The notes: generated by a model from the sequence alone, not told the origin. Counted from the stretch's first letter, positions 4,900 to 34,107 are shown. The stretch is 64,000 nucleotides of DNA from Phoronis australis (GCA_002633005.1 NMRA01000384.1:225504-289503), one strand, 5' to 3'. A program made the numbers and translations.

Positions 4900-5074
4900 A
4901 ATTGACCTATCACAAGCTCCACCCCCTTAATGTCGACTAACAAACAATAAGTTTCACCCGGCAACGTGTTGTTTGTCGGGTAAAATGGCGGCTTGGAAAC
5001 GAAGGTGTGTCAGTAATGATGCTTTCTAAATGGTCAGTTAAGCCTTCACTCAAAATCCTGGCGATAGGTCAATT
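4900..5074. mobile_element. MITE, copy 1 (TIR AATTGACCTATC...GATAGGTCAATT)
   Basis: Terminal inverted repeats are visible, and a diverged copy lies in the opposite orientation at 60865-61043. Confidence 0.7.
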
Positions 5075-5913: not shown

Positions 5914-6789
5914 NNNNNNNNNNNNNNNNNNNNNNNNNNNNNNNNNNNNNNNNNNNNNNNNNNNNNNNNNNNNNNNNNNNNNNNNNNNNNNNNNNNNNNN
6001 NNNNNNNNNNNNNNNNNNNNNNNNNNNNNNNNNNNNNNNNNNNNNNNNNNNNNNNNNNNNNNNNNNNNNNNNNNNNNNNNNNNNNNNNNNNNNNNNNNNN
6101 NNNNNNNNNNNNNNNNNNNNNNNNNNNNNNNNNNNNNNNNNNNNNNNNNNNNNNNNNNNNNNNNNNNNNNNNNNNNNNNNNNNNNNNNNNNNNNNNNNNN
6201 NNNNNNNNNNNNNNNNNNNNNNNNNNNNNNNNNNNNNNNNNNNNNNNNNNNNNNNNNNNNNNNNNNNNNNNNNNNNNNNNNNNNNNNNNNNNNNNNNNNN
6301 NNNNNNNNNNNNNNNNNNNNNNNNNNNNNNNNNNNNNNNNNNNNNNNNNNNNNNNNNNNNNNNNNNNNNNNNNNNNNNNNNNNNNNNNNNNNNNNNNNNN
6401 NNNNNNNNNNNNNNNNNNNNNNNNNNNNNNNNNNNNNNNNNNNNNNNNNNNNNNNNNNNNNNNNNNNNNNNNNNNNNNNNNNNNNNNNNNNNNNNNNNNN
6501 NNNNNNNNNNNNNNNNNNNNNNNNNNNNNNNNNNNNNNNNNNNNNNNNNNNNNNNNNNNNNNNNNNNNNNNNNNNNNNNNNNNNNNNNNNNNNNNNNNNN
6601 NNNNNNNNNNNNNNNNNNNNNNNNNNNNNNNNNNNNNNNNNNNNNNNNNNNNNNNNNNNNNNNNNNNNNNNNNNNNNNNNNNNNNNNNNNNNNNNNNNNN
6701 NNNNNNNNNNNNNNNNNNNNNNNNNNNNNNNNNNNNNNNNNNNNNNNNNNNNNNNNNNNNNNNNNNNNNNNNNNNNNNNNNNNNNNNNN
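5914..6789. other. Assembly gap (N run)
   Basis: Run of N. The long ORFs spanning it are artefacts. Confidence 0.99.
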
Positions 6790-6951
6790 CAGTGGCGGAT
6801 CCAGGATTTTGAGTTGGGGGAGGGGGGTCAAGGCAGAGTATTAGCCAGGATTTTGCCCGTCAGACATTCGCACCCACGAACTGCCAAATTGAATCTGAGA
6901 GAATGTTAGGTTGGACATGGCCCCCTTGGCGACCCTCTAAATCTGCCATTG
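6790..6951. mobile_element. Short non-autonomous element with CAGTGGCGGAT-type TIRs (hAT-like MITE)
   Basis: CAGTGGCGGATCC...ATCTGCCATTG ends. A related copy is at about 19794-19910 and similar ends occur at 55935-56669. Confidence 0.6.
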
Positions 6952-12740: not shown

Positions 12741-13079
12741 TTATTTGGGTTCGTTTCCAGGAAAAACTTCTTTACAAAGGACTGGATGCTTTGCTCTCAG
12801 GTCTTTGTAAATTTCTTCGATACGTACGCCTTGTTCAACTGTTTTGTCTGGAGGTATAGACATGGCCCCAGCATGCGGTGGGAGGTTTGGGAACTGAAAC
12901 GCGTGAAGAACTGCCACACAGGCATTCTGTCCTGCGTCGCCAACCATTCCTGGAGACCCAGAACTTCCTCCAACGAAATCCTTTCCAACATGATACAAAA
13001 CTCGTCTTGAATCCAGAAAATGCTTTGGATAGGCATTCACACGAAGAGTCTGCTGGGACCACTCACTAAGCGCCCGATA
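12741..13079 (-). CDS. Gene B terminal exon: protease C-terminal part with catalytic Ser
   Basis: TTTACAG| acceptor, phase 0; YRALSEW...VLYHVGKDFVGGSSGSPGM...AVLH...TVEQGVRIEEIYKDL...PK*. Confidence 0.9.
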   Translation of the reverse strand, partial: YRALSEWSQQTLRVNAYPKHFLDSRRVLYHVGKDFVGGSSGSPGMVGDAGQNACVAVLHAFQFPNLPPHAGAMSIPPDKTVEQGVRIEEIYKDLRAKHPVLCKEVFPGNEPK

Positions 13080-16000
13080 CTGTAAATAATAACACCTACA
13101 TGTATAGAATTACTACTGTTCATCAAGCCCATTTTGGTTGGCTCAAAAATTTTACCTAGTATTAATCTTTGATTTTACTTATGATAGTCAGAAAAAATAT
13201 CCCGACTGGACCAGTGTTGCCTGTTTTATATATCAACCATAATAAAACAAAGTTTCTCGCATCATGTATCTGGGTACGTAGACATCAATTGATTACTTAA
13301 TTGTAGGAAAAAACGTTTTAATTGAACAGGATGTTGAACATATGATGTTACTGGAACAAAAATTCTTTATGCAAATAATAAAATGAGATCGCAGATGTAA
13401 GGGTTAGATGGTAACCTGCAGTAAATGTGAAATTTAAGTGTAACTTTCCTGATGAGATGAGCTGGGTTAGAATCAGAGTATGTTTTGGAATGCTGACGTT
13501 CCCAACAGTAATCGCTACTTTGTTTTTCAATTTTTTGCCAGCTTGGTGTAAATGCCTGTCTTGTGAGCTTTGGTCACCAAGAGGTGCAAAAATGTGAAAG
13601 ATTGGCGTAAAACGAGAAAATTTGTTATTAAGCTTGAAAGATTGACAGAACACGTGAAAGATTGACATAAAACATGACAGATTGGAATAAAACGTGAAGG
13701 AGTGATAAAAATGTGAAAGATTGGCATGTGACTCCTAGCTGATCCACACAAGAATTGTAGCACCTGTTCACAAGTTGCTACAATCAGTGCATGAAAATGG
13801 GTTATTTTTTCTGACAGTATGAACTCGTTTCTACATAGTGTGCACAAATACCACAAATTGTTGACAACGTCTACAACAACCTGAAAATAGTCTACAGTTG
13901 CGACTCGTGCAAAATAATATGAACTAGGTGTTATTCATAAACGTAGCCTTGCATGTTTTTGAAATTTTCACAACTAATTCTCCAGTGCCATAGACTTTCA
14001 GAATGTATATATTATCTTTATTTCCGTAGCAACAACGTGTTCAGTGATTTCATGCCGTTCTTTTCGATCACGAGATAGACCTCGCCAGTTTTGGTAACGT
14101 TGACCATCGTTTTTATGATACCAGAGGAGTTCCAGAAGCCCTCAAAAGTGAACGCTATTTGCGCATAGTCGAACTTCAGTCACGGAGCAAGTCATGTGAC
14201 TTTCAAACTTGATATTGATTTGCTGTATGACAGACGCTTCTACATGCGCAGATAACGTTCATATCCGACGGGAAATTTGAGGCTACGAAAATATCCGAGG
14301 TGTTCCAAAGAAGATAAAGATAAAGAGTTACCTCTCGGTGAAGCTCCTCGCGGTCCAAGTGAATTACTTTGCACCCATAATCAACAACTTTCGCTTCGCC
14401 TTTAGGGTGGCCCGCGAAAATTACATATTCGTGCATGCCAAGTTTCATAAACCTGTTTATGGGTTTTGGCAACGAGGATGTTTCACACGCACATTCTAGA
14501 ATAGCATAATCCAATTCTTTATTCCAAGCAATGATTGGGTTGGCAGTGAACCCAAATTTTCTGTATCTTTGCTCATCATCTTCTTGAAACGTCCTGTCGA
14601 AGTTGAACAAACAACTTCTTCCATATTTTCTCCTTTCTTTTTCTTCATCTGAAGCAACAATGAAACGGAACATATCGAGACTCTTCAAAACCCTAAGTAT
14701 AACAATCCCTTACATCTTTGTTTTTTCATTACATTATTTGCCCACAAAAGTGGCCTAGAAGGACTTCATTTTGCCATCAGCTGTAAGAAGATATAGGGCA
14801 ACGCAAACCCACACATAAAGTGCAGAAACTTCGCTCGCTCAGTGTCAAGTGTACACGAAGGACCACTGGTCAGTGATTAGCGCACAAGGATTATTCAACA
14901 GGGGACTTTTGATACTGGTGCACTCTAGCATAATGAGAATACGAAAGTGACTTCCGAATGATGCGACTCAGATCTGGTGGAGAGAAATTCAATTACAAGT
15001 TAGTGGTTCATAAGTATAAAAACGGAAAAACAGAGAAGTAAAGTTCTCTGTCAGCTGCCCCTCCCATTGTTTGGTTAGTTAAAGTTCATTAATTTAGCTT
15101 TTTGACACAGGCTGTGGTCGAAATTCTCATACTTTATGAGCGGCAACCAATGGCTTTGTCGCAGATATACCTTCCCAGTGTTAAATATATGGAACAGAAC
15201 ATCGTTGCTCATCTGTTGACATTTCAAAAGGTTTGCCTTTTTTCGTTAAGCATTGGTACATCCCACTGCACAGCAGTGAAAATTTGCCTGTATTATAATT
15301 TAGTAGGAAAAGTGTTAAAACGCTGTTTATACCAGTAGGTTGAAACCTCCCGTCCGCATTACAGAGGATCTGTAGGTGGCGCTGAACTCCTGTCTGCCAA
15401 AGACCTGATCGCCATCTAGAGGTTTAGTGAATTTTGAAATGGCGCAGTTATTTCGAAAGTCACCTGTTGGTCTTCCAGGAGTTCAAATGTCCACCTTTCA
15501 ACAAATGTTTGCTCAAGATGAGAACGATGTTAAATTTTTTATCAGCACTATTATTCGGTCACTTGAAGTACTGCCAAATTCGAAACTTGAAATCGTAAAA
15601 TTGTGGCCGTTAAACTGTTCAGTAACAGACCAATAGCAGTGCTAGATATCCTCTCCCACTAACTGTGCTGAAAGAATCATATAACTGTCAGATGTATTCT
15701 CGTGACTGGTGTTAAATATTTCACTTCTGTGTTATTTCATCCCACGCCAATAGCAAGCAATGACTTTACTTGATTTATCGGTCCGGTTTTCTTCTGTTCT
15801 ATTGTGAATTTTCGTGAGTACATAGCGACACTAGTGTTCACAGAATTTCAATTTGAATTAAAACCAAACCTACTCCCTGATATATATAACAACACGAAAG
15901 AAATTTCAATTAAAGACCGCATCGATTGTATTTTACATGGGGCCAACTGCAAACCCCGAAATTCCAAAAGTTGTTACCATCGTCAGAATCTACATCGGGC

Positions 16001-19000
16001 TCCTTTACTACGTGGTAATTGGTCATTAAGTATCGTCTTCCAACTCGGAAGCCAGTGCCGCAGCTTCCGTTCGACCAATTAATTCGGGCGACAGACGCAG
16101 ATGCCTCCACAATTGTTTGATGTAGATGACTCGACAGAGAGTGTTTGCCGCAATCTCGAGCAGGTCCACTGCCTGTTAAAATGTTAAGGAGAAGGTTAAA
16201 CGTGGCATTTAGTAACGATGGACAGCATTTAAAGTTTATCGGAAACATTTCTTTTGATTATTGCTTAATACTTTGCACGCATCTGTCGTCATTTGCGAAC
16301 GATAAGCCCACTTAAACACCAATTAATCTAATACAAGTAATGTCGTTCTCGTTAAAGGGATACCAAACCCGGTTTTGACTTACTAACGGATACTTAAACA
16401 CGACTTTCACACCCTCTTCTCTGAAACAAAAAATACTCTATAAACCTCGACAGCACTTAGAAGGTTGGAGCAAAACTCCTTGCAAAGTGTGGTAAACGAA
16501 CAAGCGTGACCTACGCTTCGGGTGAGATATACGACAGACGTAGGGAAGTACCATAATAAGAGAGTACGAGTTTTCGGTTGAGTTCTGCTTTCCTTTTCCT
16601 TTCGTGACATGATCTTTTTGTTTGGGTGGTTACAAAGAGAAAACGCATATTAATTGAAAGACAGATTTAACAAATACCGCTTTTGGTCTGTAGTCTTGAT
16701 GCCATAACAATCTGAAACAGAGCAACTCTGCACGCAGTTAGCTTCCTTGTAACACCTGACCCTAGTCTCCCTGAGTTCCAGGGTAATACAATAGGGAAGC
16801 CAACTATACATGTACATCTCGTGCACATCTATGTAATTATCTATACCAATGCAAAGGGATTAATACCCTCAGGAGCGGAAAATAACATTTCTGGTCACCC
16901 TCGACACCCAATTTCACGAGCTGTTCGCCACCAATTTTGTGCCGTCTTCCGTCATTTGTGCCGCCCGTCATCCCCCGCCTCCCCCCTCAATCGTGGTATC
17001 GCTAGAGTGATCTAACTAAACCGTACATGCTTCTTCAAGTGACGAACGCCTCCCACCAAAAGATCCACGATTGGATAATTCCGAGTAACACTGCCTGCTT
17101 TCTTTATTTCCGTCGATCTACAAACAAACAAGCACAGGGAATATGATTTTATCATTACATCGTGGTCAAAACACCACCAGGGGCACGTTTCATGAATAAT
17201 TGTTTGTTTTAACCGAGCCTGAAATCGGGATAACTTAACATCAAAATGTCAGCGCTGTTTCATGAAAACTCTTCAGACCAAAATTAAGACAGAGATCGGT
17301 CTAAGTTCAAAAGTTTACTTGATAACTGAGTAGATTTTTGTTCTTAATGACTAAAATTTATCACTACCATAACTGTTGACTGCAAAGTAACACATTTTGA
17401 TGATATTTTTCGCCATCTAATGCCCCTAAATGATGTCAAATTGAAGATCGTCTCTTTCCGATCCAAGAGTCGGCAAAGCGGCCTAGACTTGTACTGACAA
17501 TGCAATCCGACTAAGCCAACCTGCATTTGGGAAATGATATTTCCAGCCATACCAGAGTATTCGTAAGTTAACGATATCTTTATTGTTGTAAATAAATCTC
17601 CGCTTAGCGTTTCAAGGCTAAAACTTTGAGACCGTATTTCACACACTGCCTCGCTTACTTTTTTCAATTCGTAATAAGTGATTAGAACGTAGGCCTAGTT
17701 TGCGTGCTCACCTATGATCTAATACCACGGTTAGGGACTTACAGGTGCGCACGGCAATTAAGAAATTGGTGAGCCAGGTTTGACGGTTTTATGGACTAAA
17801 GGGAATATGATTCCCACGAATCGCATTCAATGATCTTTTAAAGTTATTTTGTGTAAATGAATCAAAAAATTTGACCTTTGTTCTTGTTTACCCGGATACG
17901 GAAGTGCCGCCATCAGAGCACATCCTTTTTCAGACTTGAATTCTTGGGGCGAATTCAGGTACCTTTCAGACAAGTGCAAATTTAAAAAAAATCTAGTTGG
18001 CAAGGGCATATTTAACTTTTGGAATCTAGAGTGAAGGAGCATTCGGATTTTGCTCCCCTCTCTTACAACGGGGCACCAGGGCAGTTAGGCCTACAATGTT
18101 TGATCATTTTTTGGCATCTCACTCTTTTCCGGTAGACGTAGCAAAGCAGAAAGATATGGTTTTGTTGAATTTCTTAGAGAAACTCCATCGAGTGTACTTT
18201 TTGTCAGTTATGCTTTTAGGTGTCTTAAGACTGCTGTAAAAACAAGGGCTTTCATTGACCCAGACCAGTGATAAGGACAAAATCGGCCACTCAAACTGTC
18301 GTCATTGCCTTATATGTCAAAACCTGGGGTAAGGCAAGACCACGACCAAAAAGCGACTTTGAGTTCATGTAACGAACTTTGAATTCATATAAAGGACTTT
18401 TGAGTTCATGTTACGGACTTTCAGCAATGTCCACTTTCAACCTTAACGTAGTCCGAATTTTGAGTTTAACTAAGACACAAATTTTTGGTCTTAAGTCACT
18501 TTTCATGGACTATTATATCAGACTGACTCAATCTATTTGACGGTATACCTGTGTCAAATAAAACTTACTTTTACGGTTCTTGAAAACAAGAGGATTTCTT
18601 TCTTCCTTTTCCATATCTGGAACACTTTCATCAGCACTTCGCTGCTGAGTTTTTTTGTGCCAACAAAATGCCTGTCATCAATGAGCATACCCGTTCTCTC
18701 ACATATTTTTCTGTCCACTTTCATCGGGCTTGATTTCTTTTCCAACACTCCTTCACTGCAGGTGATTTGAGCGGAGAACATAATTTCCTGCTGGCTATGC
18801 AACTCGCTAGGGTGTTGAAAATCACACTGATGCTGTAGAAAACTTGCCTTATCCGAGTGGCAAAGCAAGCTCAGAGCTATTTCGAACTCCTCTTTTGAGG
18901 CAGAAGGACAAAACTTGACCCTGAAAGTCCTTTTTAAGTAACCTCGTATGAATTCGTAAGCCTTGCGTCGAAATTTAGTCCACCCAATAACGTGTTCTGA

Positions 19001-22000
19001 GAACTTTGAACAATAGTAGACTAAATCAGAGCCTTGCAGCTGTACTTCACTCTGACTGGTAATGTCTGTCACTTCATCTTTAGACTTCCGAAATATGAAG
19101 AAGTCAGAGACATTACAGAAACCATTCAGGTGGTTTACTATGGCACTGACGTCCACTCTCATTTCCACGGGTACTTTGAAGGAGTGTTCAGTGTGCACAC
19201 AAATTCTTTGGGGATGCAAATAAATTGTCCCTTCGTCAAATTCTTCCAAAACAGCCTGCACCAACAAAGGCTGTTCCACCCTCATAATGCTAAATTCTGT
19301 GCTCGAAAAATCCTCCAAGCCTCTTTCAATTACTGGAAACAAAGCGTTGTGCCACAAATGTTACGGCCTAAATTTAATGTAAGCACACACGGTATTGAAG
19401 TGTTCATTTTACCACATGTTCAAATTTATTGAGTGGATGTATAAAATTATAAACAGTGGGGGAATTAAGTTCATACAATACCATCTTTATTTTATTTTAC
19501 CATGGCAAAAGGAACACTGTTGATTAAGTCGTATGTACTTAAAATGAATAATAGAAAATTAACGTGAATTTGTTAACAAGTAGAGAATTTTCGTAGTTAT
19601 TTGGTGCATAGAGATTTTATGCGCGTGAACATGGTTGGTCCGTGCACTAAGAAGTCGCAAAAAGTGGCCCAGAAGAAGAGAACCTGCGTCCACGAGAGGG
19701 GCACAGTGTGCACTAGAGAAAAAAATGTTTGTTGCCTGGTAGAAGCCACGCGCGGGCAAAGAACTTTAATGCGTTAGGATGAGATGTCTCAAGCAGGGGC
19801 GGATCGTGGATTTTGAGTTAGGGGGATAGCCAGAATTTTACCCATCAAATATTCCCATCCCCCCAACTGGCAAGTGGAATCGGCAATGGCCCCCTTGGCC
19901 TCCCTCAGCCTTACAGACCATATCTTGCATTGACATTACTGTGGAAGCCATGAATTGTTGGCGAAATAAAAAATCCAATAACTACATAAAACACAGATAA
20001 AAGTAACAAAAACATCAAGGTTGAACAGTAACAGCAAAAATTAGCGGTTCTTTGGGTTCCTTGGCAAGGAAGACGAATGTACTTTTTCCCATGCAAAAAA
20101 TTCTTTTGGAAATTGAATTACTCAAAAAGTCAGTGTGACTGGTGTTTTACTTGATGCGAAATACTACAGTTACTTTCCTCTATCTTAATTTACCAGAGTG
20201 CATGGCGTCCGCTTCCCTTCCTTTCGTCATGTCTTCAATTCCTGTGTGCTGTTTCAGAGTGCCATCGTACGCGTCATTACACACGTTATCACGTAGGTCT
20301 TTTCCTGGTGTTTTTACGATATCCTCTAGATCAACACTCAAGTGTTGATCAGATGAACTTGCAGTCGCTCCCATCGACTCTTGTTGTACTTTTGAGGCAA
20401 ACCCCGATGACTCTGACACAGTTTGCTTGACCTGCTTTTGCAGATCTAGAGGTCTCTAGAAATTACAATGTACACCTAAATGTAATAAATACTCTCGTCT
20501 CATTTATTTCTCTGTGCGGACCCTTAAAAGGACAGTGAATCTAATTACACATTTTGTCAATAGCTGGCGCTAGTGACACTCGTTTGGGCTTTATTTTGCT
20601 GTTCTATTTGTTTACTAGCAGACAGCACTAGATTGACGTGACTCATGGGTCAGGACCGCGATGGTGTAATTTGTTTACAATAGCATACTAGACAACATTC
20701 CAGGAGAGCTGATGTTCCATGGGGTTGGTCTAATGATGATGTGATTTGTGTACTATAGAAAGCCAAGAGCGCCAGTTTATCGTTATTGAAATCATTTAGT
20801 TTCGTTATTGTCAAGGTAGAAGAATGTTCCATCACCCAGTTTGGAACATTCTAGAGCCTTGTTACATTTACACAAATTTGAAAAGTTCCAGAAAGTGTTT
20901 GTTTACAGGTAAGAATTTCCAGAACATTGTAATAGACTATAAATAATTGGGCTCGGGTCAGCTGAAGTTGAGCTGAGTTGAAGTAACAGTTGTAATTACA
21001 GCTTTTGTCAATAGAGGGCCAGCTATAGAGACAGCAGGTTTTGGAAAAGTAAAATCTAACCAGTCTTCAGTCTATAGTCGCACCGAAAGCTAGCTGTTAA
21101 CACCGGTCAGTAACAACCTGCGTCCACCTATCCATGGGGTTAAATGTGACAAATAATATCGTAAATTACGTGCGACTAGGTGACGTTACTACAGAATGAC
21201 AAATTTCAGTGCTCAGTAAACCTCTCAAAACCCCCCACAAGTCTTGAAACACGCTTTAAAGCACAGTAAAAAAATCATGCAAATCAGTTATATACATGAA
21301 GGCCCTAGGAGAAGGAATTAATGGCTCCGCTGAGGACCGTTCACTTTGAACCACAAAATCCAATGCGTGCACATGTCACTCCACCGGTTCGCTAGGGTCA
21401 GCTCGTGATTGAAACACGTGACATGTCTTTTTAACCAGAAGTCGTTGTCTGGAACCAATCAGATGCATCAGCCGGCTGGTCCGGTTCAACAGGAAAAATG
21501 TATCAAAAAGCAGCCAATGAGGAAGTGCTTAACTAGAATAACGTTTTTATTTGTCAGGGTAGGTGTTAAATGTGCAGTAGCACGTGGCTGAACCAGATTT
21601 GGCTGAACACGTGAAAATCGTGTTTTAAAAAATCACCAACAAGTGTTTAGTATTCGTTTAAAACAACAAGTGTTCGGGGAGATTTTTCAGTAATGCTCGT
21701 CATTTTGGAAGAAACCGGAAGTTGAGGTCGCAGTAATTCAACGCCCTTCTGTTTGATGTATTCTTATATTAAATTCTTTGTATTTGCAGACCGCAGTGAT
21801 ATGGGTTTTACTGACCTCACGAAAAGCTGTTGCATCAGTGCTCTTCTCTAGTAGGAGACTAATCACTTCCGGGTTTCCGTTTTCGGAAGCAAGTTGTAGA
21901 GGTGTTTTCGCTTCCTACAAAAATAGAAATCCCGAAATCTGGATGGAAAATGTTGGATAAGGTTTAAGAAGAGCATCACGTGGTGTGGGACTTGGGTTGC

Positions 22001-25000
22001 AGCCCCATTCAAATAACCAATGCACATATTTGTGTAAGTAATGAGTTCAGTACCTGAAGCCGAATTTTAGGAAATGAAAATAAGCGAATGATTTCCGATG
22101 GAAATGACAGCTGGAGGCCATGTTTCAGCCTGAGAATAGAAAACGAGGTCTTAAACAGTGGCTAGAATTCTGTTCGGCAACTGCGAAAGTGTAACAAACC
22201 CGAGCCTGTCTATAATCACCTTTTGAATTAGGACAATTTCTATTAAAGAGCAGCCTCACCTTGTTCTTTACTAACATTAAAAATGATTGCTAAGCTTGAC
22301 AACAATTGACAGCACGTTACTGCCTCAGACTAGACTCGTGAAGTTTCCTTGTTGCGGCACCAGTTTCAGCCGCCGAGGCAGTATCGGACTGTCTCGGAAA
22401 TTCCTGTGGATTTATTGTTCACCATTTCCAATAGAAACAAGGGATAGGACGGTTTTACTTTGGAGGTGTAAATTACACATGAGAAGAAACTTGATGTTCG
22501 AACATCAGAACGTGGATGATAGTAGCTACGATTGGGAGAAACCACCCCACCACGACGGCGACAAATGAAGCAGTAGTAGCAGAACTACGCCAGATGGCGC
22601 TAATTTCCTATCGCCAGGAAATGGGTGTCGAAGCTGATCGTCCAAACTGCCAGGAAGTGCAAATTTCAGCAGCTTGCAGACGGTTATATAAGCATGAGGT
22701 GTGTAAAAAAGACAGCACGTTTCTGTCTTTCAAAGCGACACCAAAGCCGAACCAAGTCCTCGGTGGTAGGACTGCGGTCTGTGAAAGTACGAAATCGGGA
22801 TCCTTTAAACTACTTTTGACGTATGTTTTGAGTATATTTTAAAAAATTTGAAGTAAATTGAATGCTGGTGCAAACTTCTTATGTGGTAGAAAGCTTTCTG
22901 GAACATTTTTGGCATACCTTATTGACGGCATTAAGTACAGCGCCTGCCGAGAGAAGACGTTTCACCACTTGAAGACTACCACGACTGGATGACATGTGCA
23001 GTGCAGTGTTGCCATCCTACAGTATATCGGTTAAAAATGTCAACGTCACAATTATTAAAGAAACGATGCCGCGCATTCAGACAAGAATACTTATTTTCAT
23101 TCAATGGATCTATAGGACCACCAAGTCTACTTTCTGATCGTTTTCTTTATTTTCAAGCAGAAACATTCTGTCCGCTTTTTCCATATATCGGACAACTTGT
23201 CGGATAACCAAAAGAAAAAGTGAGATCAAGTTTAATATTAAAAAGCAGTGCACAAGAAGGACGTTTCACCCTACCCACGCAAATACCACTATCCACTGAT
23301 AAAAATTCAGAGTAGGCAATTTCTCATAGTAAAATTCATTATGTACATGTACATACAACAACCCTATAGCAGTACATAGTTGTTATGTTATAGTTGTTCA
23401 CAATGACAAAAGAAAAGGTAACAGCACATCTGCAAAAATTGCCAAATTGAAAATTTACAAAAACGTAACTTTGTCATATTACATTTCCTATTGCGTCTCA
23501 GTGCTTTGGGTAAGAAAGTGTGTCAGACACGTTCTGTACACGTAGTTTCAAAGACATGAAATACAAACCAGTTCCTCTATGCCAAAACGTCGTTGTGTGA
23601 AAAGCCAAAGTTTTGGATTTCTGTTAACTGATCTTTGAAATATGCATTGGTTATGTATGTATACCCTTGTATAAACCAAATGCCAGCCCTAACGATTGTT
23701 ATGTTAAAAAAACTTCCTGAAACAATTTTCCAAACCTTATTTTTCGCTTCCAGTACAGCGCCTTTGCTGAGAAGAAGTTCCACAACTTGTAGACTACCAC
23801 GGCTGGATGACATGTGCAGCGCCGTGTTGCCATCCTACAGTATAACGTTTGACAGCGCCGTCATCACAAATACTTAAGTACGTATGCATGCACTGTTTGT
23901 CAAGTCTACGTATTTCATCGTGTTCACTTTCTGTGACGTAAAGTCAACGTGCTGAGGCAGGTGTACGTTCCGTAGAGCAAAAATCTCTCACGAATACGTA
24001 AGAACACTCAAGTTTTCACAACAAATCCCCATGTAGGATAAGCAAAGTACGTGATTACACGAGATTTTTGCGTCTCCGAAAGTTTGCCTTGAGGTCTGTT
24101 TTATGAAAAATGTCTCGAGATTTAACTCAGAAATTTGATCTTACGTTCTAGAACAAATAATTAAATCTCAATTGAGCAAAATTGCAAAGTCTCTGAGTAT
24201 TTACACACAACTGGTAGTCCCTGAGACAATTTCCACAAATCATTTCTAGGCTGTGTTGTATTCATAATTGCTTCGTTGAACCTTTTGTCAACAACGGTTA
24301 AGTGGGAGCGAAATACCAATTTTCTGTCTAAGTCTTCAATCACTTTTCTTGAAACAGGTCCCGCCACAGCGACATCTTGCGTCCAGGTTGAACTAAAAAC
24401 AGTAGACCTCGATCCATTAAGCCTGGTAGACGTACCGATGCCGAACCTCAGACACCAGTAAGTCTCGAATAACCCGAGAACGATATGTTGGAGGCAAAAA
24501 TGTTTGCAGGTTTTTGTAGCACAAGATCTATTCACACTCCAAATTTCAGACAGATTAGCCAAAGGACGCCGGAGCTACGAAACCATAAGTCACAAGGTAA
24601 AGGAAAAGCCATCAGAAACTCTTGAATAACTCTACAACGGTAGGTGGTAGCGAGAAACAGAAGGCACACATCAGACACACCCCTTGATAAGGTATATCGT
24701 ACATATCAGCCTTCCGAAGAGTCCTTCAAAGAACCGCAGAGCTAGAGCTCCACGAAGAGAATATTTGAAATTTGTCCGAGACAATGTCACCTTTTGACTC
24801 CTTTTGCCCAAAACTCTAAGCTTCGAAATTTCAACTAGATACATGTTGTGTATGAATTTCCTGTCAACCAGTAGAAAGTGGGATCTGTAGCGTACGATCA
24901 AACAAACGTACAAAAAACAAAAACAGAATACAAACTCTATGGCAAAGCATAATACTTTAGGAAATTTAATTACACCAAGTAAAAAACCAGGTGCGTAACG

Positions 25001-28000
25001 TTTACCTGATCAACGGCTGTTGCATCAGCGCCTTTCTCTAGAAGAAGAAGGACCACATGCGGGGAACCTGTTTCCGATGCAAGGTGCAAAGGTGTTTGCT
25101 CTTTCTACAATACATGTAAAATAAAGGGAAAGTTAGTAAACCGTCATGCAAATTAGGATGTTGGCAAAAATTTTACACAAGTATCAGGAGATATGTAACA
25201 TTGACTGGATGCAGACAACTGCAGACGACCAGTTTGCTTCCATGTCCTTACCACAGTACTTCAGTTTCACCGACGCACGATTAAGGTTTCTGGTGGACCA
25301 TAAAAATGTCCAAATTTTGCTAAATTCGGAAAATAACGTCTCAGAAATGACTGATCAGATTGCCACAAAACTTTAATATACCGTGACGCTTTATGCATTT
25401 TTTTTCGAAATCGCCGATAGGTGTTGCTCTTTAAAACGCCCATCCTCCGGCTACGCGACGAGCCATCGAAATAAAACATTTATTTTGATGAAAAAATCTG
25501 GATGTATAAAGCGAAAAAGAAACGATAATTTTGGACACGATCATTTTTTTGAAATTTAGCTTTGAAATTTGATACCAAATGCAATTCGATTGTTTCGGAT
25601 GTACTTTTCATTTTGTTACGTGACCCAATTAGTGGCAGATGGATAAAAAGCCAATAATATTAATTCCATAGTTTCTACTTTCAGAAAATATTCACTTTTT
25701 ATAAGTTAAAGGAAAAAATTGGAGACATTTTTCTATACACCTACGCGTGTTTAAGACAGCGCCGATCAGGGAACGCTTAAATGCGGTCTTCGGATAGAAG
25801 TCAACAGCTCAACTGTACTTTGCTGAGAACAAGTGGATTTCACAGTGAAACGTCGACGCGTCCTTACAGTGGGAACGGCCAGTTTCGGTGCCTATCGAAG
25901 TTATCGGAAGGGTTCACTGCTGTGACAATGGTAAAGGTCATGTCAACCCACCTTGCGATAACTTCGATGGCGATAGCGTCACCTGGAGATAACTCTGAAG
26001 TCTATTAAATTCCAAAGCTAGTGCAAACGCACACATTAACTTCGTAGATTACGTCTACCTTCGGTAGTACTTCATACCGGGTTTAATTTAATGGGAAAAG
26101 ATCTTGTGTTCTTACAAGACGAGCGCACGGTACTCCTACTCCATTCCAGCACACACTTCTTGCATCCTACAAACATCACGTCATTGTCACCAACAGTTTA
26201 AGAACTGACATAACGTCACAGGTGTGTTTAACTCAATGTATTATTAATGAAGTACGACAATTGAATAACTGGAATAGGCTCAAACGCGACCTACATTATT
26301 TGCCACTTGAACATCAGCGCCTTTGTTTAGAAGATTCACCACCGCTTTTAACACACCACGTCGGGATGCGAAGTGCAGTGCCGTATTGCCATCCTGCAAA
26401 ACGTCAATTAACAAAGTTGACAGCACAAATATTAAAGTGACATTGCATTCCACCTGGTGGGGTCACAAGCAACGACGGTCTGCCATCTCATACCACGAAC
26501 AAATATCAGTTTATTTAATTAAGGAACAAACAATTTTCAAATTCAAATTAAACTCTTGAATGAGTTTCACTTTACGCATACCAGTCCACTAATAATTTAC
26601 AATAAGTAATTGCTTACAGATTAATAGTTTGTGCATATAAATCGGGACATTTGGGTCTATGCGAAAACATAAAGATGAAATGCCGCTGCAGCATCTACAG
26701 TGTAAAAACGCCTCGTCAGTGTTTATTATTTTTGCTCGAAGGGGAAATTACGGGTACTGCAACCCCCAGAAACTCCCTGACAGCTTTTTTGTATTGCGTG
26801 GAATATCTCAGAAAAATATGATAATAAGCCAATTTCGTAGTGTGTCAAACAGCAGGATATTTTGCGGGTGTAGCGAGACGGCAGGTCAAGTCTTCAAAAA
26901 GTGGGAAAACTCTCGACAAAAGCGGGAGAGATGGCAATTGCGTAATACAGATTGAAAGCGTGACGTCACCGTACTGATGGAGAACAGGGCACGATTCCTA
27001 ATCGTTTTACTCGACATGGAACGAGGAATTATGTTTAGCAATTTCTACTCTACTTTTGTGCAAACTCAAGATAATTGTCTATTATTCAATGCCCGAGTAT
27101 ATGATGACTTAGGTAGTTTATTAGTCCTAGTTTGCACCTGATGAACCCAACATTAAGGCTAAAAGTTCGAGTTTAAGCACGAAATTTGAGTTTTTACTCG
27201 AACTAGTAGCACGAATATAAGGCTCTTCATTTGCAAACTTGGACTAGAAACTCATTTGCATATATTATAATATATTCGAACACAGCCGGATAACCACTTA
27301 TCTTGAGTTCGCATAAAAGGAGCAGAGAAATTGTCAAAAATAATTTCAAGTTCGTTTCGAGTACAAATATTAGAGACCAGGCCCAGGAGATTCGGTCATC
27401 TTGGTTCTTTATGGGAAAATACATTGAGGCAACGTTATAATCGGAAAACCACCAACTGATCGCTGTTAAAAACGCAGTCAATATGCTAATTTGCGGGGTT
27501 TACATATCCTGTGAATTGAGCTTCAGATTTCATAAGGTTACTTTTTTAACTTTGCGGGTTTAAACATATGTGTTACTGCAAGTGATTAGACAGATGCCGA
27601 ATTGTTCGTCTCCAATTTGGAGCAATTGCTTATGGGTTGACCTATTCACTTTCTGTCACGTTTCTTAATAGGCAAATCTATACAGAGCACATGCAACTCA
27701 AAAATACTAGGTTCTTAAGGCGCGTTTTAAAAGCCTGCTTGCATCCAAAATTGACATCATGACGAAAGGTATATCTGTCAGCGTATTTACAAAAAGGCAT
27801 ATGCATAACGTACCCGATCAACAGCTGATGAGTCAGGATCGTGCTCTAGAAGAAGGCCCATCACCACCGGATGACCACTTTCGGATGCAACGTGAAGAGG
27901 TGTTTTCGCTTCCTACCAGGCATTAAGAGTGAAAACAGATACGTTATCAAAGGAAATGACGTTTGCGTATGTTTAAGGAGTACATGATGGGGTGTCATCC

Positions 28001-31000
28001 AATTCCGAAATCTACATCAAAAGAAACTTTTTTCCTTGCGCAGGGTCAATGCATGACGAGTTATCTGTTGAAAGAAAATGTATAATGCCTGCTAAAGGAA
28101 TTTTGTATAGTCTGTATTCGTTTATAACTATTTTGTTTTGTGGATAGTCGTCCTGTGTCATCTGTGCCTTAGTGGACTGTTGCAATGGGCCCTGAAGAAG
28201 AACAATAAAGTTACTGAAACGGCCACCCACTTTCAATTAAATGAATCTGAGAAATTCTGCACAGAAACAATGCTGCATAAACTTCACTGTCTCGTGAACT
28301 GATGACATCAATTTAATTTCATACAGCTCCAATTTATGAATAGATTCCTTAACTTTTACAAAGTTGGCGCTGTCACATTACTTTCGGGGACACGTGGAGT
28401 GCATTTTATCACAGGTCGTACGTGCCTCTCTTAGCTAAGACAGTGGTAACTTTGATTTCGACTTGCACACAATTCATAAACGTTACTCATGAAGGCAGTC
28501 GTTAAGTCTGAATATAGAAAGTTATATCGTATTTCTTGACTTATTGATAGAAGGAAATTGGCTCAGTTTGAACAGCTTATGTACCAGCGACAGTGCTGGA
28601 AATGATATTCCGTACTACACTTAGTGTAAATGCTCTTAACCAGCAAAGCTTTATTGTTACATTTAGAATATGCTCCAAGAACAGGCTAATAAGGCGCTAA
28701 AAGCAAGTTTGTGATTGTATATTTACTCTTATTGAGCAATTAATATTGAGAAGTACTTTGGTTGGAGAAAAAGGAGAACAAAAAGAAATGTTGAAGTTCA
28801 TGACTGCCGGGGGGGCAAAAATTGTGGCCAGAGGGGCAGAGTTTGATGACCTCGAAATCAGAATTGTCCAGTGGGTAAAGAGAATCCCGCGCAAACTGTG
28901 CCGTGGATCACACGACGAGTCGCGTGACAACTCAGTGGCCTGATGAAGTCCTCGAGAGGAGGACATAACGTAGCCATCTCCATATATTCGTAAGTCGAGT
29001 AATTGATTTATTATGTTTCTTCCTCAATCTAGCATACCTTATTTGGTATTTTAGCTCCAACATCTTGGGTAAGTAAATGCTTTACCAGCTTTGAATTACC
29101 ACGGCAGCATGCAATGTGCAGAGCGGTATTGCCATCCTACAAGGTGGAAATAAACAAATGTAGGCTACTCAGCAGATATTAAAACACAAACACTGCAACT
29201 TCCTGTCAAGAACACTGACTTTCATTTAGTAGACAAAGTAGGCTGGCAACCAAAAACAGTAGTCCTTGGCTTCAGGCAACATCGACCTTTCACGTCTTTT
29301 CGGCGGATCCCATATAGAAGGGGGGGGGGAGNNNNNNNNNNGGGGGGGGGGAGAAGGAGGGGAAGGGGGAAGGAGAGACTTAGGGAAGGAGGCTAGGGTA
29401 AAAGAGGGGAGAGAGAAATCATCAAAGACTGTAGCCGCTTCTTTGGTAACCACTGACCAATATGTATTTGTGCACTGCATTGGAGTCCAAGAAATATAGA
29501 TTATTACATGGCGAAGTCGTTATCCCCCGTTATCTAGAGCCCGAGTGGATTTTGGAGAATTATCGCCCGAGGGTGATAATTCTCCAAAATCCACGAGGGC
29601 TCTAGATAAGGGGGATAACGACTGAGAACATGTAATAGTCTATTTATATCACATACTAAACGAGAAACATTGCAATGAATCGATCTACCTTTCTCGACTC
29701 GCCTCGGCTTTGTAACTACTTTCTATGTCAGAGACCCGGGGTCGGAGGTCGTGACCTTTAAGAAAAGCCGAGCTATTTTTGTCAAATTATACTTATACTC
29801 AAAACCAATTGGAAATTTAAACAAAATAGAAATGAAGTGAATCTCTAAATTAAGGTTAAGCAACTATTATAGCTTAAAACACGTTTTTTACACGCTAAGC
29901 TTCGACCGGGAAATTATCGTCTGCTAAAGTAGGTTACCACTGGTAACTGAATATAATTCTCAAGTCAAAGATCCTGATGACACGATACCTGCATTCAAAC
30001 TGGAGATCGGTGATTTAAAAGTAAGAGGACATGAGAGAAAAAAATCACTGAATTAAGATATCATTTTTATGGAAATTATGTGTCTTATTTTTCGGAGCGT
30101 ATAAGTACAGTACAATGCGGTTTGTTGAACGTGCGATTATTGCGCGTGCTCATTTAAGTATTCTATTTTTACACTTGATGACGTCAGTTGCTGAGTGGTG
30201 TAGTGGTTAAAGTCGGCGACCGGCAATAATACGGTCCCGGGTTCGAACCCGTCCTCGGTTTCCCGCCAAATCGTTATCTCACTAGTGAGATAACTTTATG
30301 GGTTATTTATCTTAACGGATTCAGATGCAACCAAAACGCCAGTAAATTTAAAAGTTTCTTATCAAGTTGTGATGAAAATGTCACAAATTCGTCTGGTCTA
30401 AGAGAGAAAACTGTAGGTTCTTCCAATCATTGTTAAGTTACTATTTCTTGTTTTGGTCCTCTGATGGTTACGTAACCGACTACGTTCACTTTTTACGGAT
30501 TACTTGCAACTTTAATAATGTATTTTCGGGTACAACGGGTCAATGGCCTCGAGGTATATACACTAAGGAAACTGATTTACGTTTGAATGCTCGTGGGCTC
30601 TTGCATGTGCGCGCGTGGTCAAAAACATCCGAGACATATTATATTTTACACTTGGAAAGTTGTAGTCTATGGTGAAGACTTAGTTGAATGTACCAATACA
30701 CTTTTTGTTAGACTTTGTTAGACAGCTTAATAAATACTATCTGGTCTCTGTACAATCTCTTCAGGCGTGCAGTTATGAAGCAAATCACCAGGATATATAA
30801 CGGACAAACAAGTCAAAATTGTTACTCTAGTAGAATTATCAGGAAGAATTACACCCTGAGCATACGTGAACCATTCTCCTGTTAAACCAAAATACGCTGT
30901 AACCCTTAAAATGTCATTGTGTACAAACTAGATCAAAATGACTGGTGCTTAACGATATGTTAAAACTGTTTGCAGTGACAAGTTTGAAGATCAAGTGAGT

Positions 31001-34000
31001 ACATGCTAATATATCTTCCGAACTCGGTTTTAACTATATATTAATAAAGCACAAATATGGTTTCAGGTGATCAGTGCACTGGCCCCACATGCGTGGCCTG
31101 CACACGTTTGGTAAACGTGCAAAGGGCAGTACCGTCGTACAGTATGCCAATGTTAACAAAATAAATGTCACTTAAAAGTGCTAATACCGCTACTCCCGCG
31201 TTTTTAGGCAGATCCCCAACAACAACGAAATGTCGGATCTTTTCAAGGTGCAGTCTCATCTAAATAATGGTGAAGCTGACACCAATATTGTAGTGTTAAA
31301 TTTTAAATCAAATTTTATAAGTCTGTGGAACATTGTGATTTTGAGTCTGGCTAGCCCAATGTAAATTGCAATTGAAAGCTGTTGAATGTGCTGCAGAACG
31401 ACCATGGACATTGCGTTGGCCGATTCAGGATGGTCAAGGTCATTTTCCCCTTGATTTTAGTGATATCTAATCTAAAATTTTGAAATTGTTGACTTTGACG
31501 AACTTTTAAAAAAACCCTTGACCAGTCACCCCCTTTTAAACATCCTTGATCCACCCTTGAGCTACACATTAAGTATCCACGTGCATGTACCAGTCCATTG
31601 ACTAACAATGTTAACAAAAGATTTACTACAACGCATCGCAAATCCCCGCCTTCATACTACCCTACAACACAGTGTTATTGTGACAATAAAATCGTTTGCT
31701 GCGGAAAAGTTACAGAAAAAGAATACTTTTTGCATACTTTCGAAAAGCAGACACGTTTACCGTTAATTCTCACCTGATCAATTGACTTTACTTGTGCCCC
31801 TTTCTCTAGAAGAAGACTAACCACATCCAAGTGGCCGTTAGCAGATGCAAGGTGAAGAGGTGTTCTCGCTTCCTACAATAAGACAAAAAACGGAAAAAGG
31901 TAAATGACAGGGAAAACGACGTCGAAAAACATTTAACAGTCGCTAGTGCCTGTAATAAGAGGCATTTCGTCTTAACCGCGAGCGATGCAACGACCACCGC
32001 TTCACTTGGAGTATACTACATAAATAATAAAAAAGCATAGAAGTATCCTTTGATACCGTACCAAATACGCACACGTAATTAATCACACAAGTGGGGATTT
32101 TTAAAACTAATATAAAATACTCAAAGTGGAATGGGGATAGAACGAGAATGCAAGATCAAAATATTGAAATAGTGCAGTAGAAGTATGTATAAAAGCAGTA
32201 GAATCTTACTACACACTAGAATATTAAATATTACGACAATTACACAATTTGGAGAAACATGAGAGTGATGAAATTTTGGCCTAATCTGTTTGAAAATGTC
32301 GCCCAGACATGTCGACGAATCTTGTATTTCGGCAAGGTTGCGTTTTCATAAATCATCGTGTACGCAAATACAGCCGTCGTGTCTTGGCTGTAACGTAAAA
32401 TGGTTGACACGGGATAATAAGAACATGCTGTTCATATTCTAACTTGATATCGCGACAAAGACAGTCTTGTTTCTGATCACAGCAGTAACTTTTGCTTTTT
32501 GTAATATTAATGATTTGAACCATGCTGGAACCTGTGTGTTGTAGAAATATCGTTAAATCACACTGGAGAACGCTGAGTCCCTTACACTACACTACAATCT
32601 ACATGTAGGAATTGTGCTCAGTGTGAATGTATTGTTCGCCTTTGGCTTTGAAAGTGTAAAATTAACTGTCTTCATAAATAACAACATTCGTTGCTGTAGA
32701 AGGAATATTGGGACCCCGAACCACGGGCACTTGTTTAAATCCCGCCCACTATGGTCTACGTCGTCTCTCAGTTGATGGTGTGACCATCATTTACATCCTG
32801 TATGGTGAAATCCGAAAACGGCCTTGGACAACGTGCTTAGAGTTTCAGAGTTAAAATACACTAATTCCTTCTTTCCATAAATTAGCGTTATGTTTGAAAA
32901 TTAAATTCAATAGCAAACGGACATGTTTATGCTTGAGGTGTATCCGGATTGAAAGGTCGGAGTTCAGAATGTAGATTACATTGTCAATCGACCATCTTAG
33001 GTGGTAACTCGCGCAGCTAGCCACAGATATACCAGACGTACTGTACGGTGGACTAGGTGAAACTCGAATAAGAATTTGGTAACTGAGTGAAACGTCACAG
33101 ATACTTGAATACGCCACAGATGCTGAGACGGCTGCTTAGCGTAGTTTGGAACACAAATCGAAACCAAAACACTGAGTGTTCGACTGTTTGAATATGATTG
33201 TGAGTAATGGGTTTCAATACAGTATACAGTATACAGGGACATTGTTTATTACATCGAAAGTTATTAATGTTCGGAAAACTCATACAATGAAAAGCATCTT
33301 TGATGGATCCTCTTCAGCTCTGGTTAAGATTTGTAACAATATTTTAGAAACCACAATAATGTCGGTTTTCTTTAACTGCGACCGATATTTATATCTCATT
33401 ACCCAATCTCTCGCTTCCACGTCGGCTCCACGGTCCAATAAGGACCTCGTGATCACTGCGTCGCCATTTTTAGATGCCTCGAGCAGAGCGTCTCCAATGG
33501 AAACCTGTTGAAAAAATGAACAATGACAAACTTCACCGCAATTAAATTATTCCAGTTTCCTCTACATAGACGTTTTTAACCAAAATTGAAGTAAAATGTT
33601 CACCATCCTTCGTTTATGAATGATAGGGGTTTATCAAACATGTCACGGAGCATAGTTATAGAGGACGAAACTTGTTAAACCAGTTCATTAAAGAATTTAT
33701 GAGGATAATCATCGTTAGACGATGCTGTTTCAAGTGATCAAAAAGTTACTGATTTTTAAATATTGAAACCTTAGTACATGCGCGCACCCAAGAGGTATCG
33801 GGGGCTCCAACGAGCCCCCCATTTGTCGAAGAGGGCAAAAAGGCCCGCCTCAAAGAAACAAAACCTCGGAAAAATTGAAAAACGAGACGAAAGTCCACTA
33901 AAAAGTCAGGAACTACCAAAATTTGGCGAATGCACAATTCATAGCTCTGAACGTACCCGTGAATATAAGCAAAAAGATCCACATTCTCAAAAATTAGAGC

Positions 34001-34107
34001 CCCCCCCCTTTTAGGCTGGGTTCGCGCATGTGGTAACATCATATTTGGAACACTTTTCACATTTCACAATACTTCTTGCAAAATACCAAGCCTACATGTA
34101 CCTCCAT
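12741..34107 (-). CDS. Gene B (17-exon model, about 1,010 aa): 9 ankyrin repeats - linker - ZU5/UPA-like domain - FAM111-like trypsin-fold serine protease
   Basis: Exons joined in frame with GT-AG and matching phases: 34102-34107, 33403-33504, 31774-31872, 29038-29136, 27814-27912, 26295-26393, 25006-25104, 23736-23834, 22918-23016, 21816-21914, 20194-20455, 18569-19332, 17521-17694, 17027-17117, 15978-16172, 14332-14648, 12741-13079. Triad motifs TNYHV, LDYAIL and GSSGSP are present. Confidence 0.85.
14332..14648 (-). CDS. Gene B protease exon with catalytic Asp
   Basis: Phase 1-0; FNFD...ELDYAILEC...IFAGHPKGEAKVVDYGC, a FAM111/Trypsin_2-like GHP motif. Confidence 0.9.
15978..16172 (-). CDS. 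Gene B protease exon with catalytic His
   Basis: Phase 1-1; ASASVARINWSNGSCGTGFRVGRRYLMTNYHVV. Confidence 0.9.
17027..17117 (-). CDS. Gene B linker exon
   Basis: GTTTGTTTGTAG| acceptor and |GTACGG donor. IDGNKESRQCYSELSNRGSFGGRRSSLEEA; phase 0-1 restores the frame into the protease. Confidence 0.6.
17521..17694 (-). CDS. Gene B exon after the ZU5/UPA-like domain
   Basis: Open 174-nt phase 0-0 exon AYVLITYYELKKVSEAVCEIRS...IISQMQ. The acceptor is weak and the frame is kept with or without it. Confidence 0.5.
18569..19332 (-). CDS. Gene B large exon: ZU5/UPA (FIIND-like) region
   Basis: 764 nt, phase 1-0. Shows a ZU5-like pattern F-x-x-PV-x-M ... V-T-D-I-T ... L-V-Y-Y-C-S-K-F-S. Colinear homology with 51754-52553. 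Confidence 0.8.
19794..19910. mobile_element. Truncated copy of the CAGTGGCGGAT-type MITE
   Basis: CAGGGGCGGATCGTGGATTTTGAGTTAGGGG...TAGCCAGAATTTT...ATGGCCCCCTTGGC matches 6790-6951. Confidence 0.6.
20194..20455 (-). CDS. Gene B low-complexity linker exon between ankyrin repeats and ZU5
   Basis: Phase 0-1; RPLDLQKQVKQTVSESSGF...DAYDG...DAMHS; TTTCTAG| acceptor and |GTAAAT donor. Confidence 0.8.
20555..21151 (+). mobile_element. Solo-LTR-like repeat, copy 1
   Basis: TGTCA...TGACA ends and an internal TATAAATA. It shares blocks (TAGCAGAC...ATTGACG...GTAATTTGTTTACAAT; GTCAATAGAG...CCAGCTATAGAGACAGCAGGT) with 43188-43755. No clear TSD. Confidence 0.5.
21816..21914 (-). CDS. Gene B ankyrin exon 9
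   Basis: 99 nt, phase 0-0: EAKTPLQLASENGNPEVISLLLEKSTDATAFRE. Confidence 0.9.
22918..23016 (-). CDS. Gene B ankyrin exon 8
   Basis: 99 nt: DGNTALHMSSSRGSLQVVKRLLSAGAVLNAVNK. Confidence 0.9.
23736..23834 (-). CDS. Gene B ankyrin exon 7
   Basis: 99 nt: DGNTALHMSSSRGSLQVVELLLSKGAVLEAKNK. Confidence 0.9.
25006..25104 (-). CDS. Gene B ankyrin exon 6
   Basis: 99 nt: KEQTPLHLASETGSPHVVLLLLEKGADATAVDQ. Confidence 0.9.
26295..26393 (-). CDS. Gene B ankyrin exon 5
   Basis: 99 nt: DGNTALHFASRRGVLKAVVNLLNKGADVQVANN. Confidence 0.9.
27814..27912 (-). CDS. Gene B ankyrin exon 4
   Basis: 99 nt: EAKTPLHVASESGHPVVMGLLLEHDPDSSAVDR. Confidence 0.88.
29038..29136 (-). CDS. Gene B ankyrin exon 3
   Basis: 99 nt: DGNTALHIACCRGNSKLVKHLLTQDVGAKIPNK. 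Confidence 0.9.
29497..29642. repeat. Near-perfect palindrome of about 145 bp (transposon-derived hairpin)
   Basis: TAGATTATTACATG...TATCTAGAGCCC...TGGATTTTGGAGAATTATC is mirrored by GATAATTCTCCAAAATCCA...GGGCTCTAGATA...CATGTAATAGTCTA. Confidence 0.85.
30190..30259 (+). mobile_element. tRNA-derived head (SINE or tRNA pseudogene)
   Basis: A box TGGTGTAGTGG and B box GGTTCGAACCC with an imperfect acceptor stem. The anticodon arm is not canonical. Confidence 0.6.
31043..31118 (+). repeat. Dispersed repeat ending in a GC hairpin (second copy at 49877-49954)
   Basis: AATAAAGCACAAA...CAGGTGATCAGTGCA..GGCCC.ACATGCG.GGCCTGC.CACGT.TGGTA occurs in both places. Confidence 0.6.
31774..31872 (-). CDS. 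Gene B ankyrin exon 2
   Basis: 99 nt: EARTPLHLASANGHLDVVSLLLEKGAQVKSIDQ. Confidence 0.92.
33403..33504 (-). CDS. Gene B N-terminal capping ankyrin exon
   Basis: 102 nt, phase 0-0: VSIGDALLEASKNGDAVITRSLLDRGADVEARDW. Confidence 0.88.
34102..34107 (-). CDS. Probable first coding segment of gene B (Met-Glu)
   Basis: GCATC ATG GAG|GTACAT has a good Kozak context (A at -3, G at +4) and a phase-0 donor that matches the next exon. Confidence 0.55.

Follow-up and report, generated by a model that had tools for sequence, protein, structure and literature searches.

FAM111A is inactive as a monomer and requires dimerisation for its activity (PMC10920703), and caspase-1 is activated by homodimerisation, with UPA oligomers lowering the assembly threshold about 100-fold in NLRP1 and CARD8 (PMC7794386). 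FAM111A has an antiviral role (PMC13245274), and FAM111-like proteins devoid of ubiquitin-like (UBL) domains are known from soft coral and lancelet (PMC9798293). Caspase and trypsin serve as alternative effectors in bacterial conflict systems, including EAD-trypsin (PMC8195603), and the supplements of the same article catalogue amphioxus TRADD-N(+Death)+Trypsin and Acropora ZU5+ZU5+GT4 proteins. Here, we describe a gene from the phoronid Phoronis australis in which a trypsin-fold protease is predicted to be fused to an ankyrin and ZU5/UPA-like scaffold, and a tandem paralog in which the same scaffold is predicted to be followed by a caspase. Both lie on the minus strand of a 64,000-nt stretch (GCA_002633005.1 NMRA01000384.1:225504-289503; hereafter, the window), and coordinates are counted from its first letter.

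Scaffold and protease modules of the gene

The window consists of intron-rich eukaryotic DNA with a GC content of 39%. From 34107 to 12741 on the minus strand, nine ankyrin exons are followed by a linker, a ZU5/UPA-like exon and three trypsin-fold protease exons. These domains, their order and the intact catalytic triad are directly observed, whereas their inclusion in a single transcript is predicted. In the predicted assembly, 16 exons spread over 21 kb form a single open frame of 955 residues with canonical splice ends, uninterrupted by stops or frameshifts and with every catalytic residue and splice end intact. This is a real, intact gene region, and its architecture was not found in the sources searched (see below). 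The start codon at 34107 and the stop at 12741 coincide with the ends given in an earlier interpretation of this DNA made without database searches (the sequence-only reading), which had proposed a FAM111-like protease fused to ankyrin repeats and a ZU5/UPA-like domain. The ATG belongs to a 6-bp first coding exon (Met-Glu; 34107-34102), followed by a GT donor in a phase that fits exon 2; this exon is predicted and has no read support.

The protease is distributed over three exons. The first (16172-15978, phase 1-1) encodes the N-terminal segment with the GTGFRV and TNYHV motifs and catalytic His726, and matched Trypsin_2 (E 0.0022, below cut-off) and a MarP-family protease (E 0.0015). The second (14648-14332, phase 1-0) carries LDYAIL, GHPxGxxK and catalytic Asp784, and the third (13079-12741) contains GSSGSP, AVLH and VEQG, nucleophile Ser883, His902, Glu925 and the stop codon, with sense reads in the stop-codon and downstream bin. 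All seven motifs named in the sequence-only reading were thus recovered on the minus strand in the order it gave. Six of them are unique in the six frames of the window, and AVLH occurs twice more elsewhere, by chance. The triad His726/Asp784/Ser883 is intact and in order, with the nucleophile within GxSGxP, and the ESM Atlas matches of the third exon all belonged to the trypsin clan (0.95), mainly bacterial Trypsin_2 clusters and unnamed fragments. Judging from these features, assignment to clan PA with an S1 trypsin fold can be considered secure.

Membership in the FAM111 group is a separate question, on which we lean only modestly towards a positive answer, based on a single weak best match and on the spacing of the triad. 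With the second exon as query, FAM111A was the top match in the PDB (8s9l and 8s9k, E 0.049 and 0.054). The triad residues are spaced by 58 and 99 positions, compared with 54 and 102 in FAM111A (His385, Asp439, Ser541), in which His556 and Glu573 (+15 and +32 from the nucleophile) line the S1 pocket (PMC10920703); the corresponding His and Glu of the phoronid protein are at +19 and +42. Other results leave membership less certain. A methylase outranked FAM111A in the PDB once the longer open frame of the second exon was queried, FAM111 was not listed for the first and third exons, the third exon had no PDB match, and no FAM111-named cluster was shown among its Atlas matches. FAM111 activity calls for dimerisation through an N-terminal helix; in the phoronid protein, a segment of suitable length precedes the first strand and is only modestly amphipathic (hydrophobic moment 0.3-0.5). 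The vertebrate-type UBL pair and the PIP box of mammals were not found, the N-terminal 640 residues being taken up by ankyrin repeats, linker and the ZU5/UPA-like region; because invertebrate FAM111-like proteins also lack UBLs, this leaves the wider FAM111 group open. Thus, of the proposed FAM111-like trypsin-fold protease, the fold and the triad held, whereas the FAM111 affiliation was not established.

The scaffold begins with the nine ankyrin repeats counted in the sequence-only reading. All nine exons matched PF00023, eight of them above the Pfam cut-off; the exception is the first (33504-33403, 102 bp, phase 0-0), a degenerate N-terminal cap with 19.1 bits against a cut-off of 21.1 (E 0.0017). 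The other eight are 99 bp long, and all nine are in phase 0 with AG/GT ends. After the cap, two types of repeat follow in the order A B A B A B B A, namely 31872-31774 (type A, 38 bits), 29136-29038 (B, 34.3 bits), 27912-27814 (A, 24.9 bits), 26393-26295 (B, 32.6 bits), 25104-25006 (A, 33.4 bits), 23834-23736 (B, 35.4 bits), 23016-22918 (B, 35.8 bits) and 21914-21816 (A, 23.6 bits). Nucleotide identity is 62-81% within types versus 44-55% between them, which indicates local duplication of a two-repeat unit. The ratio of nonsynonymous to synonymous differences (pN/pS) among same-type exons is high, about 0.5-0.95; in each of the 12 pairs of the same type, pN is lower than pS. The sequence-only reading had proposed a sensor-gated protease; the repeats alternate between two fixed types and do not form a uniform array with variation at the binding positions, and on these few repeats a hypervariable, DARPin-like sensor was not favoured. 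The seventh and eighth ankyrin exons, 81% identical to each other, were recently duplicated together with flanking intron (22890-23060 and 23709-23878; 77% identity over 171 bp). Another ankyrin intron harbours a non-autonomous repeat (29492-30307) with many other copies, from which both strands are transcribed.

A polar linker exon (20455-20194, phase 0-1, AG/GT ends, open frame, sense reads in its bin) leads to the 764-bp ZU5/UPA-like exon (19332-18569, phase 1-0, residues 388-642), which is also covered by sense reads. In the ESM Atlas, the first match of this exon was a ZU5/UPA cluster (0.96, 185 shared features). The top three matches were all ZU5/UPA clusters (0.96, 0.95 and 0.94, with ZU5 on 47%, 39% and 85% of the members), and the family or its clan appeared in nine of the ten best family-bearing matches. 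The neighbours are animal clusters, including UNC5B and echinoderm and sponge ZU5/UPA clusters. The exon is also homologous to its counterpart in the paralog (see below).

Other approaches gave a less clear picture. Pfam returned no ZU5, UPA or FIIND match at E≤1, NCBIfam gave no name to the 254 residues, and the Atlas recognition value (2189) is below the guide value of 2300, which weakens the domain call. AlphaFold models were poor, with a mean predicted local distance difference test score (pLDDT) of 47 from one sequence and 42 from two. The first model, set aside as unreliable, matched only small alpha/beta folds, with no Foldseek match at E≤0.001 and a best Z of 5.7. In the second, the C-terminal half formed a beta-sandwich, which speaks for the assignment; residues 132-254 resembled C2/Ig-like sandwiches (best Z 5.4; root-mean-square deviation (rmsd) 3.2, 85 aligned residues). 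This low-pLDDT model aligned to the NLRP1 FIIND with Z 4.5 (rmsd 4.1, 93 aligned), but NLRP1 and CARD8 UPA ranked only 34th and 48th (Z 4.5 and 4.4) among generic sandwiches, not above background. On the Atlas evidence, we accept the middle exon as a putative, divergent ZU5/UPA-like domain; this element of the sequence-only reading is thus backed by Atlas features and left without support by the Pfam hidden Markov models.

The sequence-only reading had also taken the protein to be cytosolic and free of a signal peptide, and this view holds up: the highest 19-residue hydropathy across the 955 residues is 1.03 (by hydropathy scan rather than a dedicated predictor) and the polar N-terminus is the ankyrin cap, which argues against a signal peptide or a membrane helix. 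Of the 254 stop-to-stop frames with at least 62 residues, 103 were scanned with Pfam and revealed no further domains, and neither these 103 frames nor the exons gave a death-fold match, the C-terminus of the protein being the protease.

A tandem paralog with a caspase

A second minus-strand gene, overlooked in the sequence-only reading, ends 4 kb upstream and comprises ankyrin exons, two linker exons, a ZU5/UPA-like exon and a caspase. Two ankyrin exons (63604-63506 and 59003-58905; PF00023, 39.6 and 41 bits) are in the window, and the gene probably starts beyond its end. They are followed by predicted linkers at 55772-55692 (phase 0-0) and 55127-55016 (acidic, phase 0-1), both with AG/GT ends and open frames. 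The ZU5/UPA-like exon (52553-51754, phase 1-0, with sense reads) is homologous to that of the first gene over its whole length (26% identity over 207 residues, E 4e-18), and both exons end at the same Val-Lys donor. A 34-bp linker exon (51302-51269, phase 0-1; predicted) then connects to five caspase exons (42845-42747, 41969-41782, 39612-39525, 38904-38731 and 38395-38130). Peptidase_C14 was recognised in three of the four caspase pieces scanned (E 1e-10, 1.9e-8 and 0.0011), and the catalytic dyad is intact, with His-Gly in SHG and QxCR as QSCR. The caspase tail is short and rich in Cys and His, with a weak zf-H2C2_2 match below cut-off (E 0.0017). No death-fold prodomain was found in the part of the gene within the window, the 5' end probably lying outside.

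From the linker onward, the intron phases of the two genes are the same (0-1, 1-0, 0-1, 1-1, 1-0), so that proteases of different classes follow the same phase-1 intron in tandem genes. Because both effector modules sit behind a phase-1 intron, they would be exchangeable in frame. The pair is likely to represent an effector swap on one scaffold, and the suggestion in the sequence-only reading of a non-caspase alternative effector gains strength from a neighbour that joins the same scaffold to a caspase.

The 34-bp linker scored 19.6, the best of 98 candidates and above the 15.0-16.5 of control intron stretches; this better predicted link provides a local precedent for splicing from scaffold to enzyme. 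Sense depth is similar over the caspase and ZU5/UPA-like bins. A joint at a predicted caspase intron was seen in four reads of one RNA run (X2, see below), in which four junction letters differ from the window, pointing to an allele or a close copy; the splice from scaffold to caspase was not seen in the 18-19% of each run that was read.

Assembly gaps (runs of N) are present at about 5910-6795 and 53267-53498, the latter in the intron upstream of the paralog's ZU5/UPA-like exon, where it could hide a small exon. A caspase intron contains a multi-copy element (40400-41413) covered by RNA reads on both strands at a depth of about 30-110; it encloses an acidic 90-residue frame (41209-40940) with no Pfam match and is probably a transposon remnant. 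A 184-bp dispersed repeat flanks the two-gene cluster as an inverted pair (4895-5074 and 61048-60865, 87% identical).

Transcript continuity and mode of activation

Whether scaffold and protease share a transcript was assessed with RNA from three raw-read runs (X1-X3, of which 18-19% each was read) and one contig run, all with the same species label. The ZU5/UPA-like exon reached a sense depth of about 1.5x in X1, and several ankyrin bins had 0.2-0.3. Across X1/X2/X3, the values were 1.17/0/0 and 0.52/0.40/0 for the ZU5/UPA-like exon and 3.65/1.47/0.04 for the stop-codon bin of the protease. The two ends thus follow the same run order, X1>X2>X3, which supports one transcript. The connection itself depends on a predicted 91-bp linker exon (17117-17027, phase 0-1), needed because joining 18569 directly to 16172 would disrupt the reading frame. 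Scored with splice-site matrices from whose training the linker exons had been excluded, it was the best of 19 candidates (score 15.0). An alternative linker, the longer frame at 17694-17347, was discarded because it had no Pfam match and fell outside the 15 best phase 0-1 candidates.

Other data weigh against continuity and would suit separate transcription units for scaffold and protease or the predominance of a short isoform, that is, an ankyrin-ZU5/UPA adaptor ending near an AATAAA at 17584, with the protease separate or confined to a minor isoform. The linker score equals that of the best pseudo-exons in the four control intron stretches (15.0-16.5 in all four) and its bin has no reads. 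In none of the four runs, in which reads are sparse, did a splice joint of this gene pass the threshold for listing. The first two protease exons are nearly uncovered, with about 20 sense bases, whereas coverage of the ZU5/UPA-like exon would predict about 930 (3 fragments; rough P 0.04, loss of junction reads ignored). In X2, a sense depth of 0.78 was found at 17612-18275, a part of the predicted intron that precedes the AATAAA; X1 and X3 had no reads of this strand there, and 16948-17611 was empty. Moreover, the frame of the ZU5/UPA-like exon stays open as far as the stop at 18556-18554, and about 76 bp upstream of the first protease exon there is an ATG in frame. The intronic reads, hexamer, read-through stop and upstream ATG fit a protease-less transcript or two genes. 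However, the paralog has retained the Val-Lys donor at the same position, scaffold and protease are only 2.4 kb apart, and a pyrimidine-rich acceptor precedes the first protease exon. Two AATAAA hexamers per 2.4 kb are about what chance would give, the read counts amount to 1-4 fragments, and stray sense reads occur in other introns too. Taken together, separate units or a dominant short isoform appear somewhat unlikely, and a full-length transcript fusing scaffold to protease is probable. The few sense reads over 17612-18568 in one run possibly reflect a protease-less isoform able to act as a decoy.

If scaffold and protease are joined, the following mode of action can be envisaged. The ankyrin array would bind a partner or trigger, and the ZU5-like part would keep the UPA-like sandwich inactive until release. 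The UPA-like domains might then self-associate, as those of NLRP1 and CARD8 do, bringing together the directly fused proteases, which would become active by dimerising, like caspase-1 and FAM111A, and cut their substrates. No death-domain adaptor step would be needed between scaffold and protease. We consider UPA-like clustering the likeliest switch, because caspase-1 and FAM111A are both activated as dimers; moreover, a scaffold that accepts either enzyme would most simply supply proximity. We give an even chance to this reading as a whole, in which one cytosolic protein of 955 residues, effector-swapped with the neighbouring caspase gene, would be activated by scaffold clustering of its protease domains. 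The domain vocabulary suggests that such a protein may take part in cell-autonomous defence or cell death.

The ZU5-UPA region of ankyrins binds cytoskeletal partners, and the scaffold could likewise only target or restrain the protease, in a form of regulated proteolysis without clustering or any immune role. FAM111A dimerises unaided with a Kd of about 4.8 nM (PMC10920703), so that the scaffold need not dimerise the phoronid protease, and targeting or restraint is a real rival to clustering. The two fixed types of ankyrin repeat and an expression that is low and not shown to be induced also agree with such a role. By contrast, the same scaffold bears a caspase in the sister gene, and the scaffolds, at 26% identity and with no relative among 1.84 billion representatives, are unlike conserved housekeeping ankyrins. 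Furthermore, ZU5 and trypsin domains recur in the catalogued immune architectures of marine invertebrates. We therefore regard pure targeting or restraint as unlikely. A true FIIND-type switch like that of NLRP1 and CARD8, in which the protein would cleave itself at Phe498/Ser499, the ankyrin-ZU5 half would be degraded and a UPA-protease fragment set free, is very improbable. It is favoured by the location of Phe-Ser at the predicted end of the ZU5-like part, by FIIND clusters among the Atlas matches of the exon (0.92) and by the tolerance of CARD8 to changes in the residue preceding Phe (PMC3210808). However, the self-cleavage motif is SF/S or HF/S and His-assisted (PMC3210808), whereas the phoronid motif reads Lys-Phe-Ser, and no assisting His was found next to it or in the interval 20-32 residues upstream; both copies retain a His at the second position after the Ser. 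In the paralog, Phe-Ser is missing and replaced by Asn-Gly, so that self-cleavage cannot be a switch shared by the two genes; FIIND-type cleavage is possible, but as a common switch it appears unlikely. The term FIIND-like, used in the sequence-only reading, is thus doubtful in its self-cleaving sense. Finally, the very low read depth and the high pN/pS of the ankyrin exons might suggest a decaying shuffling product without function, but this is barely credible given 16 exons over 21 kb without a stop or frameshift, the intact catalytic residues and splice ends, and the excess of pS over pN in each of the 12 ankyrin pairs.

Activation by clustering can be placed in a wider, more tentative scheme, possible but doubtful, in which ZU5/UPA scaffolds fused to proteases would be one-component inflammasome-like switches, a FAM111-type serine protease having taken the place of the caspase through shuffling of exons with compatible phases. 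If true, it would provide a serine-protease-executed counterpart of caspase signalling, an animal version of the bacterial interchange of caspase and trypsin, and would suggest induced-proximity defence signalling as an ancestral role of FAM111-like proteases. With a single scaffold and two unrelated classes of protease, the gene pair amounts to a natural experiment, in which one can test directly if a fused protease is activated by UPA-like clustering on its own, and if a caspase can be replaced by a serine protease in animal defence or cell death. The pair is also relevant to the existence of FAM111-like proteases in invertebrates without UBL and PIP modules, a point that PMC9798293 leaves open.

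Relation to described proteins

Homologue searches used single exons as queries, and their blanks are therefore weak evidence. A word-based search restricted to longer proteins yielded no relatives among 778 candidates for the ZU5/UPA-like exon, 26 for the second protease exon and 15 for the first. A two-sequence profile had no match among the 1.84 billion representatives, and neither 152 nor 127 stretches from metagenome contigs contained one. Plasmids gave no match in one search and three chance matches in another (E 7-8), and the profile had a single match among PDB sequences (E 0.41). Thus, no relative of the scaffold or of the protease module was found in these searches to confirm the architecture. 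In the literature searched, no paper combined FAM111, ankyrin and ZU5, and none presented this architecture in its title or abstract opening; the excerpts of the FAM111 review PMC9798293 contain no occurrence of 'ankyrin'. In the supplements of PMC8195603, none of the 12 'Trypsin' places viewed in file 4 or the 17 in file 6 pairs trypsin with ZU5/UPA, and none of the ZU5 places viewed (30 of 96 and 30 of 66) includes a caspase. ZU5 proteins are expanded in sponges (PMC3482391), and the architectures listed there may bear on novelty.

Compared with FAM111A and FAM111B (MEROPS S1, Trypsin_2 PF13365; structures 8s9k and 8s9l), the phoronid protein shares an intracellular trypsin fold, a similar triad spacing, His and Glu after the nucleophile and the top PDB match of its second protease exon, but it lacks the PIP box and UBL pair and carries an ankyrin-ZU5/UPA scaffold instead. 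The FIIND proteins NLRP1 and CARD8 (ZU5-UPA-CARD) and PIDD1 (leucine-rich repeats (LRR)-ZU5-ZU5-UPA-death domain) resemble it in placing a protease-activating module C-terminal to a repeat array and ZU5/UPA. In the phoronid gene, however, the protease itself replaces the death-fold adaptor, ankyrin repeats replace LRR or NACHT, and the self-cleavage motif is incomplete, being absent altogether from the paralog. Canonical ankyrins and UNC5-type ZU5-UPA-death domain proteins likewise have ankyrin repeats followed by ZU5/UPA, and UNC5B is among the Atlas neighbours, but the phoronid protein has nine repeats, apparently one ZU5-like unit, no detected death domain and a catalytic C-terminus. The marine-invertebrate adaptor-effectors and bacterial conflict systems of PMC8195603 show the same exchangeability of trypsin, caspase or other enzymes on immune adaptor scaffolds; the phoronid gene differs from the trypsin rows viewed there in pairing trypsin with ZU5/UPA. 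Thus, the design principle, an immune architecture combining ZU5-UPA with an effector, is already known, and the new part is the predicted join to a trypsin-fold effector, with a caspase-bearing sister gene beside it.

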